Shown here: in pieces, positions 24,402 through 39,949 of the stretch
Numbering within the stretch: position 1 is the first letter of the stretch
Layout of the letters: every line of letters begins with the position of its first letter
Sequence record: NC_054929.1
Reading direction: 5' to 3' (one strand)
DNA from: Escherichia phage PE37
Length of the DNA stretch: 64,000 nt
Program-made: the position numbers and the translations under genes
Notes under the pieces: model-generated
Told to the model about the DNA's origin: nothing
The model's database searches: none
Seen by the model: only the letters and a program-made list of their open reading frames with translations

Positions 24402-25604
24402 ATGAAAGTATGTATTTTTATGGCTCGAGGTCTTGAAGGTTGTGGTGTAACAAAATTCTCACTCGAGCAACGTGATTGGTTTATTAAAAATGGTCATGAA
24501 GTGACTTTGGTTTATGCTAAAGATAAATCATTTACTCGTAACTGTGCACATGATTATAAATCATTTTCAATTCCGGTTTTATTGGCAAAAGAATACGATA
24601 AAACACTTAAGCTGGTAAATGATTGTGATATTCTAATTATCAATTCAGTTCCTGCTACTTCAGTTGAAGAAGACACTATTAATAACTATAAAAAAATTAT
24701 TGATAACATTAAACCTTCTGTTCGTGTTGTAGTTTATCAACATGACCATTCTTCTCTTTCTTTGCGCCGAAATTTGGGATTAGAAGAAACTATTCGTCGA
24801 GCTGATGTTATTTTTAGCCATTCTGATAATGGTGATTTTAATAAAGTTCTGATGAAAGAGTGGTATCCAGAAACTGTTTCTCTGTTTGATGATATTGAAG
24901 AAGCACCGACCGTATATAACTTTCAGCCTCCTATGGATATTGCGAAGGTTCGGTCAACTTACTGGAAAGATGTTTCTGAAATTAACATGAATATCAACCG
25001 TTGGATTGGTCGTACGACTACATGGAAAGGTTTTTATCAGATGTTTGATTTTCATGAAAAACATCTTAAACCTGCAGGACTAAGTACTGTTATGGAAGGT
25101 CTGGAACGTTCTCCAGCGTTCATTCCTATTAAAGAAAAAGGAATTCCATACGAGTATTATCGTCTTCATCAAGTAGACCAAATTAAAATTGCTCCTAATT
25201 TGCCAACGCAAATTCTTGACCGTTATGTAAATAGCGAAATGCTTGAACGCATGAGTAAATCCGGATTTGGTTATCAATTGAGTAAGTTGGATAAAAAATA
25301 TCTACAACGTTCTTTAGAATATACTCATCTCGAGCTTGGTGCATGTGGAACAATTCCGGTATTTTGGAAATCTACTGGCGAAAATTTAAAATTCCGTGTT
25401 GATAATACTCCTTTGACCTCGCATGATAGCGGTATCATTTGGTTTGATGAAAATGACATGGAATCAACATTTGAACGTATTAAAGAACTGTCATCTGACC
25501 GAGCTCTTTATGACCGTGAGCGAGAAAAAGCATATGAATTTTTGTATCAGCATCAAGATTCAAGCTTCTGCTTTAAAGAACAGTTTGACATTATTACAAA
25601 ATAA
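24402..25604 (+). CDS. a-gt: DNA alpha-glucosyltransferase (hmC alpha-glucosylation)
   Basis: 400 aa; closely matches recalled T4 alpha-gt sequence. Confidence 0.9.
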   Translation: MKVCIFMARGLEGCGVTKFSLEQRDWFIKNGHEVTLVYAKDKSFTRNCAHDYKSFSIPVLLAKEYDKTLKLVNDCDILIINSVPATSVEEDTINNYKKIIDNIKPSVRVVVYQHDHSSLSLRRNLGLEETIRRADVIFSHSDNGDFNKVLMKEWYPETVSLFDDIEEAPTVYNFQPPMDIAKVRSTYWKDVSEINMNINRWIGRTTTWKGFYQMFDFHEKHLKPAGLSTVMEGLERSPAFIPIKEKGIPYEYYRLHQVDQIKIAPNLPTQILDRYVNSEMLERMSKSGFGYQLSKLDKKYLQRSLEYTHLELGACGTIPVFWKSTGENLKFRVDNTPLTSHDSGIIWFDENDMESTFERIKELSSDRALYDREREKAYEFLYQHQDSSFCFKEQFDIITK

Positions 25605-35371: not shown

Positions 35372-35405
35372 GTTTACAAGAATGTTCTTCCATGGTACTA
35401 TACAA
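35372..35405 (+). promoter_or_regulatory. T4-type early promoter with conserved leader
   Basis: tgtttacaagaatgttcttccatggtactat + leader acaactatcaactactgatacggatttggataataaaATG. Confidence 0.6.
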
Positions 35406-35438
35406 CTATCAACTACTGATACGGATTTGGATAATAAA

Positions 35439-35675
35439 ATGAAAATTGTTATGGGTTGCTTAGCAGTTTGTTTAGTTGCATTAGCAGCAGTTCCATTTGT
35501 TAGTGTTGAAAATGATACTCAACCTGTGATTGAATCTAGCACTGTTATTCACACTAATGGTAAAATATCAGTTAAAATTGATGATAATCTTCATGTGAAT
35601 ACAAATGGATCTTTAGGTGTGCAAATGGGTAATACCTGCATAAGCACTACTGGAGTAATTACTACTTGCATTTGA
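35439..35675 (+). CDS. small secreted/membrane protein (78 aa)
   Basis: Track ORF trimmed to ATG after conserved leader; signal-peptide-like N-terminus. Confidence 0.55.
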   Translation: MKIVMGCLAVCLVALAAVPFVSVENDTQPVIESSTVIHTNGKISVKIDDNLHVNTNGSLGVQMGNTCISTTGVITTCI

Positions 35676-36478: not shown

Positions 36479-37219
36479 ATGATTAGTGACTCTATGACAG
36501 TTGAAGAAATCCGTCTTCATTTGGGGCTTGCATTAAAAGAAAAAGATTTCGTAGTTGATAAAACCGGTGTTAAAACTATTGAAATTATTGGCGCATCATT
36601 TGTAGCAGATGAACCGTTTATTTTTGGCGCTCTTAATGATGAATACATTCAGCGTGAACTTGAATGGTATAAATCTAAGAGCTTGTTTGTTAAAGATATT
36701 CCAGGTGAAACACCAAAGATTTGGCAGCAGGTAGCATCTTCTAAAGGCGAAATTAACTCGAATTATGGTTGGGCTATTTGGTCAGAAGATAACTATGCCC
36801 AGTATGATATGTGTTTAGCTGAACTTGGTCAAAATCCTGATTCTCGACGTGGTATCATGATTTATACTCGTCCATCCATGCAATTTGACTACAATAAAGA
36901 TGGTATGTCAGATTTCATGTGTACGAATACCGTACAATACTTGATTCGTGACAAGAAAATCAATGCGGTTGTTAACATGAGAAGCAATGATTGCTGGGCA
37001 GGCTATCGTAATGATTATGCATGGCAAAAATACGTATTAGATAAATTAGTATCTGATTTGAATGCAGGCGACCCATCGCGGCAATATAAAGCAGGTTCTA
37101 TTATATGGAACGTTGGAAGTCTTCATGTGTACGAAAATCAGTTTTATTTAGTTGACCATTGGTGGAACACTGGTGAAACTCATATTGCTAAAAAGGATTA
37201 TACTGGAAAATGGAAGTAA
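36479..37219 (+). CDS. 42: dCMP hydroxymethylase gp42
   Basis: 246 aa, thymidylate-synthase-like fold; length and position as in T4. Confidence 0.9.
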   Translation: MISDSMTVEEIRLHLGLALKEKDFVVDKTGVKTIEIIGASFVADEPFIFGALNDEYIQRELEWYKSKSLFVKDIPGETPKIWQQVASSKGEINSNYGWAIWSEDNYAQYDMCLAELGQNPDSRRGIMIYTRPSMQFDYNKDGMSDFMCTNTVQYLIRDKKINAVVNMRSNDCWAGYRNDYAWQKYVLDKLVSDLNAGDPSRQYKAGSIIWNVGSLHVYENQFYLVDHWWNTGETHIAKKDYTGKWK

Positions 37220-37851
37220 ATGCGCCACATGTTTATAAGTATAAACATCCTAAAACTAAAAAGTGGTATATAGGAAGTCATGATGGTCACAACCCGAATT
37301 ATGATGGTTCGGGTGTAGTTTGGCAACATGCTAAAAAGAAATATGGAATAAAATCCTTTAATAAAGAAATATTATATGAAGGACCAATGTTTAGACAGGT
37401 TGAAGAAATTATTTTAACTTGTTTAGATGCTGCTAATTGTCCGGATTCATATAATTTAAAGAATGAAGCATGGGGAGGAAGTTTTCCAGGCAAATTAAAT
37501 GGAATGTACGGTAAAAAACTATCTCCAGAAGAAAGATATAAGTGCGGAAATGCCTTTCGTGGAATCAAGCGTCCTGATCATTCTAAAAGAATGAAAGGCG
37601 AAGGTAATCCAATGTATGGTAAAAATGAGCAAGCATATGGAATTATAAATCGAGCAAAGGAAAATTCTGGTAAAACTTATGAAGAAATTTTTGGCGCAGA
37701 AAAAGCTAAAATAATTAAAGAAACGATGTCTAAAAATCGTAAAGGAAAACCTCATAATTTGATAGAAAAAATATGTCCGTATTGCGGACTAAAAGGACGT
37801 GGGCCAAATATGACAAGATACCATTTTGACAAATGTAAGGCACTTAAATGA
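37210..37851 (+). mobile_element. GIY-YIG homing endonuclease gene (Seg-like, free-standing)
   Basis: N-terminal VYKYKHP-x5-WYIGS motif, repeated GxxxS/NPMYGK motifs, C-terminal CPYC-x-CxxC zinc finger; absent at this locus in T4. Confidence 0.7.
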
Positions 37852-38690
37852 TTCAATTCGTAATTCCAAGCTATCAACGCGTAGGGGCAGTTTCTGCCCT
37901 TGATATGTTTCCGACTGATTATGAACCTCATATTGTAGTACGTGAACATGAAGAAAAAGCTTATTATGACGCTTACGGGTCTAGGGCTAAAATTATAACT
38001 ATTCCTGATGATGTTAATGGAATTGCTGGTACTCGTAAAGCAATTACTGATATGTATGCAGGTCAACGAATCTGGATGATTGATGATGATACTACTATTC
38101 GTATGAGTTCAATGCGAAAAAGAGATGATCGTCGTTGTGTGGATAAAGTCAATCAATTGACTCGTGAACAGTTCTATGAATTGATTCAATATGTTGAGGA
38201 TGCCATGGATTGTGGGTATTATCATGGCCATGCTCGTCTACCTATTTTTAAAATTACTTCATCTTGGGGTAATTATCGTGAAAATTCATATGGATTCACG
38301 AATACATGGTATGACCTCGGAAAACTTACGACAGAACAAATTGGGTATGGAAAAATTGATTTGTGCGAAGATATGTATGCATTTCTCAATTTAATTAATC
38401 AAGGTTATCCGCATTTGGCCTTGTTCAAATATCTGGTTGTATCTGGAAAAGCACAAGCTCCTGGCGGGTGCAGTTCAATTCGTAGTAATTCTAAACATAA
38501 TAGAGCGCTTGAACAAATCAATAGAGAATTTCCAGAGCAAGCTCGTTGGAAAACTTCTAATATTGAAAAACGAAAATCGTTGGGTGAAGAAGATGAGCCA
38601 TTAAAGGTTCTTCGTATGTGTGTTTCGCGCAAAGAAAAATCAGAAGCATTTCATAAGTTTAATGCTATTCATCCGATAGCAGTTGATTAA
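37848..38690 (+). CDS. putative DNA glycosyltransferase (GT-A-like, DxD motif) at the beta-gt locus; candidate T2/T6-type beta-alpha-glucosyltransferase
   Basis: 280 aa; IWMIDDDTT DxD motif; occupies position of T4 beta-gt but is unrelated to the 351-aa T4 protein. Confidence 0.5.
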   Translation: MIQFVIPSYQRVGAVSALDMFPTDYEPHIVVREHEEKAYYDAYGSRAKIITIPDDVNGIAGTRKAITDMYAGQRIWMIDDDTTIRMSSMRKRDDRRCVDKVNQLTREQFYELIQYVEDAMDCGYYHGHARLPIFKITSSWGNYRENSYGFTNTWYDLGKLTTEQIGYGKIDLCEDMYAFLNLINQGYPHLALFKYLVVSGKAQAPGGCSSIRSNSKHNRALEQINREFPEQARWKTSNIEKRKSLGEEDEPLKVLRMCVSRKEKSEAFHKFNAIHPIAVD

Positions 38691-38767
38691 TGCCTAAATT
38701 TATTGTGTTATAATTACTCTATCTTTAACCAGTGAGGAAAATATAATGATGCCTATGGAAAAAATGA

Positions 38768-39949
38768 ATGTCTATTGCAGATTTAAAATCCCGTTTGATT
38801 AAAGCTTCCACTTCTAAAATGACTGCTGAACTGACTACATCTAAATTCTTTAATGAAAAGGATGTAATCCGTACAAAAATTCCAATGCTGAATATTGCTA
38901 TTTCTGGTGCGATTGATGGCGGTATGCAGTCTGGTTTAACTATTTTCGCAGGGCCTTCTAAACACTTTAAATCAAATATGTCTTTGACTATGGTTGCGGC
39001 ATATTTGAACAAATATCCTGACGCGGTTTGTCTATTCTATGATAGCGAATTTGGTATTACTCCAGCTTATTTGCGATCCATGGGAGTTGACCCGGAACGA
39101 GTAATTCATACGCCAATCCAGTCAGTTGAACAGCTGAAAATTGATATGGTGAATCAGCTTGAAGCTATTGAGCGTGGTGAAAAGGTTATTGTATTCATCG
39201 ACTCAATCGGTAATATGGCTTCTAAGAAAGAAACGGAAGATGCTTTGAATGAAAAATCTGTGGCAGATATGACTCGTGCTAAATCACTGAAGTCATTATT
39301 CCGTATTGTTACTCCTTATTTTAGCATTAAAAATATTCCATGTGTTGCGGTTAACCATACAATTGAAACAATTGAAATGTTTAGTAAAACCGTGATGACA
39401 GGTGGTACAGGCGTAATGTATTCGGCTGATACTGTATTCATTATCGGTAAACGTCAGATTAAAGATGGTTCTGATCTTCAAGGGTATCAATTTGTTCTAA
39501 ATGTAGAAAAATCTCGTACCGTTAAAGAAAAAAGTAAATTCTTTATTGATGTTAAATTTGACGGTGGTATCGATCCTTATTCTGGATTGTTAGATATGGC
39601 TCTAGAATTAGGATTCGTAGTAAAACCTAAGAATGGTTGGTATGCTCGTGAATTTCTTGACGAAGAAACCGGCGAGATGATTCGCGAAGAAAAATCTTGG
39701 CGTGCAAAAGATACTAACTGCACTACATTCTGGGGTCCTTTATTTAAGCATCAACCATTCCGAGATGCTATTAAACGTGCTTATCAGTTAGGTGCTATTG
39801 ATAGTAATGAAATTGTTGAAGCTGAAGTTGACGAATTGATTAACTCAAAGGTTGAAAAATTTAAATCTCCAGAAAGTAAAAGTAAATCAGCAGCTGATTT
39901 AGAAACTGACCTAGAACAGTTAAGTGATATGGAAGAATTTAATGAATAA
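38768..39949 (+). CDS. uvsX: recombinase UvsX (RecA-like)
   Basis: 393 aa; Walker A GPSKHFKS; closely matches recalled T4 UvsX. Confidence 0.95.
   Translation: MSIADLKSRLIKASTSKMTAELTTSKFFNEKDVIRTKIPMLNIAISGAIDGGMQSGLTIFAGPSKHFKSNMSLTMVAAYLNKYPDAVCLFYDSEFGITPAYLRSMGVDPERVIHTPIQSVEQLKIDMVNQLEAIERGEKVIVFIDSIGNMASKKETEDALNEKSVADMTRAKSLKSLFRIVTPYFSIKNIPCVAVNHTIETIEMFSKTVMTGGTGVMYSADTVFIIGKRQIKDGSDLQGYQFVLNVEKSRTVKEKSKFFIDVKFDGGIDPYSGLLDMALELGFVVKPKNGWYAREFLDEETGEMIREEKSWRAKDTNCTTFWGPLFKHQPFRDAIKRAYQLGAIDSNEIVEAEVDELINSKVEKFKSPESKSKSAADLETDLEQLSDMEEFNE

Follow-up and report, generated by a model that had tools for sequence, protein, structure and literature searches.

Introduction

That phages T2 and T6 differ in the gentiobiosylation of their DNA has been known since about 1960, and the T2 and T6 genes were reportedly cloned by Winkler and Rueger in 1993. 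Gentiobiosyl-5hmC amounts to about 5% in T2 and about 72% in T6 and is produced in the two phages by homologous ba-gt enzymes (PMC6024577). Beta-1,6 transfer of glucose to alpha-glucosyl-5hmC was shown with T6 mutants; gentiobiosyl-5hmC resists the Brig1 glycosylase, and deletion of ba-gt increased the sensitivity of T6 to it, at the level of both DNA and phage (PMC11078745). The glucosyl hydrolase BapA released glucose from the DNA of T6 delta-g-gt and none from wild-type T6 DNA, the genome of the mutant being taken by the authors as approximately 75% alpha-glucosyl-5hmC (bioRxiv 10.64898/2026.02.25.707755). For the T6 enzyme, published work gives membership of PF20691 (TET-associated glycosyltransferase, TAGT), a GT-A model, and a position as sister to GT2; in the genus Tequatrovirus, the combination of an alpha-GT with a TAGT is usual, and that of an alpha-GT with a beta-GT is rare (6 of 753 genomes) (PMC13216743). 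In the DNA of phage Solly, HPLC/MS found about one-third 5hmdC and about two-thirds alpha-gentiobiosyl-mdC (PMC13390438).

Here, we describe the corresponding locus of Escherichia phage PE37, based on a stretch of 64,000 nt from sequence record NC_054929.1 (hereafter, the window). We are highly confident that a 280-aa ORF at 37848..38690 (forward strand) encodes a T2/T6-type beta-glucosyl-HMC-alpha-glucosyltransferase (ggt, also ba-gt or g-gt; Pfam TAGT) with the corresponding role in the modification pathway. The identification rests on identity to a characterised enzyme, synteny, the co-encoded alpha-gt, the GT-A fold, and conserved motifs; the chemistry is what we infer. The gene itself is already known: it is annotated in hundreds of genomes, widespread, experimentally characterised, and common in T4-like phages.

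Results

The window has the character of a T-even (Tequatrovirus-like) replication and recombination region. Its gene order is 43, imm.1, imm, 42, a 213-aa ORF, the 280-aa ORF, uvsX, 40, and 41, in agreement with the annotated T4, T6, and T2 records. The 280-aa ORF opens with an ATG that is the first start codon in frame and that shares an ATGA overlap with the stop codon (TGA) of the 213-aa ORF before it (37210..37851); uvsX lies downstream at 38768-39949. The sequence IWMIDDDTT was located at residues 75-83 of the product, with D79-D81 encoded by nt 38082-38090. An earlier note on this DNA had described a 280-aa protein with a DxD motif between 42 and uvsX, and the ORF, the motif, and the gene order were all found.

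Megablast detected homologues covering the full length of ggt in 478 phage records, and in nearly all of them identity was 90-99%. Codon differences from close relatives were mostly silent: 13 synonymous and one nonsynonymous versus Shfl2, 21 and two versus T2, and 16 and four versus T6. As nearly all of the differences are synonymous, ggt is under purifying selection, and judging by the homologues in the 478 records together with this synonymous bias, the ORF is a real gene rather than a chance one.

Several further observations concern the surroundings of the gene. A scan for promoters and terminators and a composition profile around ggt yielded nothing above background. At 37882-37902, 35 nt into the coding sequence of ggt, lies a GC-rich hairpin with 9 pairs and a 3-nt loop, after which comes a T-rich stretch; the same bases occur in T6. 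The hairpin may be a chance occurrence, given that sites in the terminator scan were no more numerous than in shuffled sequence. The gap between ggt and uvsX measures 77 nt and contains TATAAT at 38709-38714, with AATGCCTAA about 12 nt upstream of it. Judged by eye, this segment (38691-38714) looks like a middle promoter of the T4 kind, with a MotA box and a -10 element, that would serve uvsX; the TATAAT site was not among the promoters listed by the sigma-70 scan. A 97-aa ORF (35382-35675), for which a membrane segment is predicted, lies between gene 43 and imm.1, at the position of the small ORF RB51ORF048 in T2; the T4 and T6 annotations have none there.

The product was compared with the T2 and T6 enzymes, which the earlier note had put forward as candidates. 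Near-identity was found throughout. The T6 gene, annotated as 'ggt: beta-glucosyl-HMC-alpha-glucosyl-transferase', shared 97.5% DNA identity with 843 of 843 nt aligned; the T2 protein was 99% identical, differing at two residues, and the T6 protein differed at three to four. The exact window protein was present on 153 contigs from NCBI and other sources and is the commonest allele. Profile searches agreed with the assignment: the protein matched PHROG 842 (beta-glucosyl-HMC-alpha-glucosyltransferase) at an E value of 6e-89 and Pfam PF20691 (TAGT) at 1.2e-9 (38.9 bits, gathering cutoff 27.5), with residues 3-207 aligned to positions 2-205 of the 205-position profile. No NCBIfam model was found for it. 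[quoted passage not shown]

Two other assignments were considered and rejected. Homology to T4 beta-gt (351 aa), to which the protein had been said to be unrelated, was ruled out by a BLASTP E value of 2.2; TAGT was the sole Pfam hit of the ORF, with no match to PF09198, the family that T4 beta-gt itself hits at 9e-98. An arabinosyl-hmC transferase, a comparison with which the earlier note had proposed, was rejected in view of the near-identity to the T2 and T6 enzymes and the presence of gp42 and alpha-gt in the window.

More generally, the ORF might encode a TAGT-family transferase that uses a different sugar donor or forms a different linkage, for example with arabinose or with glucose attached directly to 5hmC, giving a modification unlike that of T2 and T6. 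The family is indeed large and diverse (2144 representatives at 50% clustering in an exhaustive profile search, E <= 1e-3), and its members occur paired with a beta-GT or alone, so that specificity varies within it (PMC13216743). The window protein is nevertheless two residues away from that of T2 and three to four from that of T6, shares the locus and the alpha-gt partner with both, and has close relatives in phages whose product is known: gentiobiosyl-5hmC was measured in phages with 98% identical genes, Solly ggt being 98.1% identical to that of the window. We therefore regard a different specificity as extremely unlikely and retain the T2/T6-type assignment.

A structure model built from a 115-sequence alignment showed a single Rossmann-like alpha/beta/alpha domain matching solved GT-A enzymes, with the DxD motif following the fourth beta-strand; D79-D80-D81 come directly after the strand at residues 74-78. 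The fold prediction proposed in the earlier note thus returned a GT-A fold with a DxD motif. This model superseded an earlier prediction from 10 sequences (pLDDT 69.7), which was weaker and gave the same picture of the fold. Across 115 diverse family representatives, R11, D80, D175, G186, and G207 were invariant, and I6, P7, R63, D79, D81, L180, G206, and R212 were conserved in at least 90%.

Searches of PDB sequences, with the single sequence and with the 115-sequence profile, returned no significant match and no solved structure of the family. The only hint was a GT2 beta-1,3-glucosyltransferase, 9jma, at a nonsignificant E value of 0.064; a match to a de novo TIM barrel was discarded as a low-complexity artefact. 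In the 9jma alignment, the N-terminal IPSYQR motif (37863..37880, forward strand; beta-strand 1 and the following loop), with its invariant R11 and nearly invariant I6 and P7, was placed opposite VIIPTYNR, IPSYxR corresponding to IPTYNR. The DDD motif (38082..38090, forward strand) aligned to the DDD of 9jma, and the E174-D175 'ED' motif (38367..38372, forward strand), in which D175 is invariant in the 115 sequences, matched its EED more weakly.

On this basis, ggt would be a metal-dependent inverting GT-A enzyme, since formation of a beta linkage from UDP-alpha-glucose fits inversion. The DDD motif (residues 79-81) would bind the metal along with the diphosphate of UDP, D175 would serve as the catalytic base acting on O6 of the acceptor, and R11, R63, and R212 would bind nucleotide or DNA phosphates. 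These putative roles derive from motif conservation and the single weak GT2 alignment (E = 0.064).

Some of the conserved residues are altered in sequenced reference phages. In both T2 records (L005:3286-4125 and L006:3289-4128), ggt has the substitutions R11H and P251S; H11 was observed in T2 alone, and the corresponding codon of the window is at 37878-37880. In T6 MH550421 (L001:4001-4843), codon 10 of ggt is changed from CAG to TAG, and the record annotates a truncated 261-aa CDS starting at Met20. In the Japanese T6 record NC_054907/AP018814 (L003:1501-2340), the DDD motif is one Asp short owing to a 3-nt deletion. Gentiobiosylation may accordingly be absent or reduced in some laboratory stocks of T6, and R11H could be a hypomorph, a candidate explanation for the approximately 5% gentiobiosyl-5hmC of T2 versus approximately 72% of T6.

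Lesions such as these make it conceivable that ggt is present in PE37 yet inactive or weakly active, as perhaps in some laboratory stocks, with DNA that carries essentially alpha-glucosyl-5hmC alone. The window frame is intact, however, and keeps Q10, R11, the DDD motif, D175, and all other invariant residues; moreover, its allele is the commonest one, and it differs from its relatives almost entirely by synonymous changes. An inactive or weakly active enzyme is thus very unlikely in our judgement, and we proceed with a functional one. A joint reading, in which the window represents the intact consensus allele, the reference phages are lesioned, and allele strength sets the level of gentiobiosylation, is offered tentatively, as a possibility to which we give the lesser weight. 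Under that reading, R11H would explain the difference between T2 and T6, PE37 would be a high-gentiobiosyl phage, and some circulating 'T6' stocks would lack the very modification for which they are cited.

The other components of the modification pathway are encoded in the window as well. Gene 42 (36479..37219, forward strand; Pfam Thymidylat_synt), collinear with gene 42 of T6 and T2 at 90% DNA identity, encodes the dCMP hydroxymethylase that supplies 5hmC. An alpha-glucosyltransferase gene, a-gt (24402..25604, forward strand), whose product matches the full PF11440 (AGT) profile at an E value of 1.8e-237, accounts for the alpha-glucosyl-5hmC acceptor. With both present, the acceptor of the beta-alpha transferase is made by the same phage. 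Within the 64-kb window, the syntenic beta-gt slot is filled by ggt.

In the proposed pathway, gp42 would make 5-hydroxymethyl-dCMP, which would replace C in the phage DNA; alpha-gt would attach glucose, donated by host UDP-glucose, to 5hmC through an alpha linkage; and ggt would add a second glucose, beta-1,6, onto that alpha-glucose to give gentiobiosyl-5hmC. The predicted pattern of PE37 is that of T2 and T6, composed of bare 5hmC, alpha-glucosyl-5hmC, and gentiobiosyl-5hmC, and not the alpha plus beta mono-glucosylation of T4. Because the window allele keeps all family-invariant residues, high, T6-like gentiobiosylation is expected, although its extent is not readable from sequence, the T2 and T6 enzymes being nearly identical.

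The 213-aa ORF upstream of ggt (37210..37851, forward strand) matched PHROG 314, a homing endonuclease family (E = 1.2e-30), and was 31% identical to T4 SegA (E = 4e-9). Its NUMOD3 score (18.1 bits, cutoff 20.4) and TIGR01453 score (24.9, cutoff 56) were both below the cutoffs, and the Pfam scan did not report GIY-YIG for it; a zinc-finger-like CxxC...HxxxC motif is present at its C-terminus. Homologues with 65-70% identity were found in two phages, one of Klebsiella and one of Yersinia. By these similarities, the ORF is probably a free-standing Seg-like (GIY-YIG / NUMOD3) homing endonuclease gene, a facultative neighbour outside the modification pathway. A literature search located no named description of an endonuclease between 42 and ggt. 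In T4, another Seg gene, segA, flanks the glucosyltransferase slot on its opposite side.

The insertion point of the endonuclease gene coincides exactly with the gene 42 stop codon, the endonuclease ATG falling within the final codons of 42; because MAFFT had misplaced the boundary, the junction was read from the sequences themselves. Gene 42 of T6, T2, and Shfl2 terminates in ...TGGAAATGA, where the TGA of gene 42 forms the overlap with this same ATG of ggt. The ATGA coupling thus belongs to the start of ggt, and the overlap persisted after the endonuclease gene had inserted.

The ATGA overlap had been taken earlier to suggest that ggt and the endonuclease gene move together, that is, as one mobile cassette. 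The overlap is real, and the endonuclease gene, found in only 76 phage records, always adjoins ggt: a query spanning the junction was covered in exactly 76 of 462 records, so every copy (76 of 76) sits directly upstream of ggt. In addition, identity to T6 is slightly lower over the first 30 nt of ggt (87-90%) than over the remainder, as expected of a short co-conversion tract. On the other hand, approximately 84% of ggt-bearing records have no endonuclease gene (76 of 462-478 have it), the same ATGA overlap is formed with gene 42 in those records, and ggt next to the endonuclease gene is 97-98% identical to ggt of phages that have none. We consequently judge joint movement improbable and treat the endonuclease gene as a separate, facultative insertion.

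What does differ with the endonuclease gene is the 3' end of gene 42, roughly its last 280 nt (36940..37215, forward strand). Two patches there had 17-22 of 30 nt identical to T6, T2, Shfl2, and T4, and at the protein level these two most diverged patches change VVFGF to CWAGY and SRH to ENQ. Across phages, identity in this region was bimodal, with 77 records at 95% or above and 418 at 80-90%. From this distribution, the endonuclease is linked to a diverged gene 42 3' end that travels with it, and not to a special ggt allele. A linked gene 42 allele beside a ggt that stays at 97-98% identity is the pattern expected of a homing endonuclease with a probably cleavage-resistant flank; the diverged segment, a candidate cleavage-resistant allele, is probably the resistant form of the endonuclease target region.

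Discussion

The value of the assignment lies mainly in annotation. It places the phage in the T2/T6 modification type, with alpha-glucosyl and gentiobiosyl 5hmC, rather than in the T4 type, and the modification type predicts how sensitive the phage is to sugar-reading defences, among them Brig1, BapA/Brig3, and GmrSD-type enzymes. Nothing new is added on the enzyme: a description of its fold, studies of deletion mutants, and measurements of its product in near-identical phages are already available.

The closest known systems are the ggt genes of T6 and T2, which share with the window gene the length of 280 aa, the locus between 42 and uvsX, and the alpha-gt partner. They are without the 642-nt homing endonuclease gene that the window has between 42 and ggt. 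At the residue level, T2 ggt has H11 where the window has R11, and the two sequenced stocks of T6 show either an amber codon 10 or a shortened DDD, whereas the window gene has neither lesion and a complete DDD.

Within PF20691, the window protein matches the profile over its full length and shares R11, D80, D175, G186, and G207, but it belongs to the family only distantly (E = 1.2e-9). The pathway of this phage involves no TET/JBP dioxygenase, and the predicted acceptor is a sugar on gp42-derived 5hmC, not TET-generated 5hmC. The similarity to GT2-type inverting GT-A enzymes (AvpGT 9jma, TarP 6h1j, and BcsA) is not significant (E = 0.064). Compared with them, ggt would act on a sugar carried by duplex DNA and is a small, soluble, single-domain protein with a C-terminal extension of its own (residues ~210-280).

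T4 beta-gt (PF09198) resembles ggt in occupying the slot between 42 and uvsX, in its UDP-glucose donor, and in yielding a beta-glucoside on phage DNA. It has a GT-B fold and bare 5hmC as its acceptor, whereas ggt has a predicted GT-A fold and would act on alpha-glucosyl-5hmC. The two genes are a case of non-homologous replacement at the same locus.
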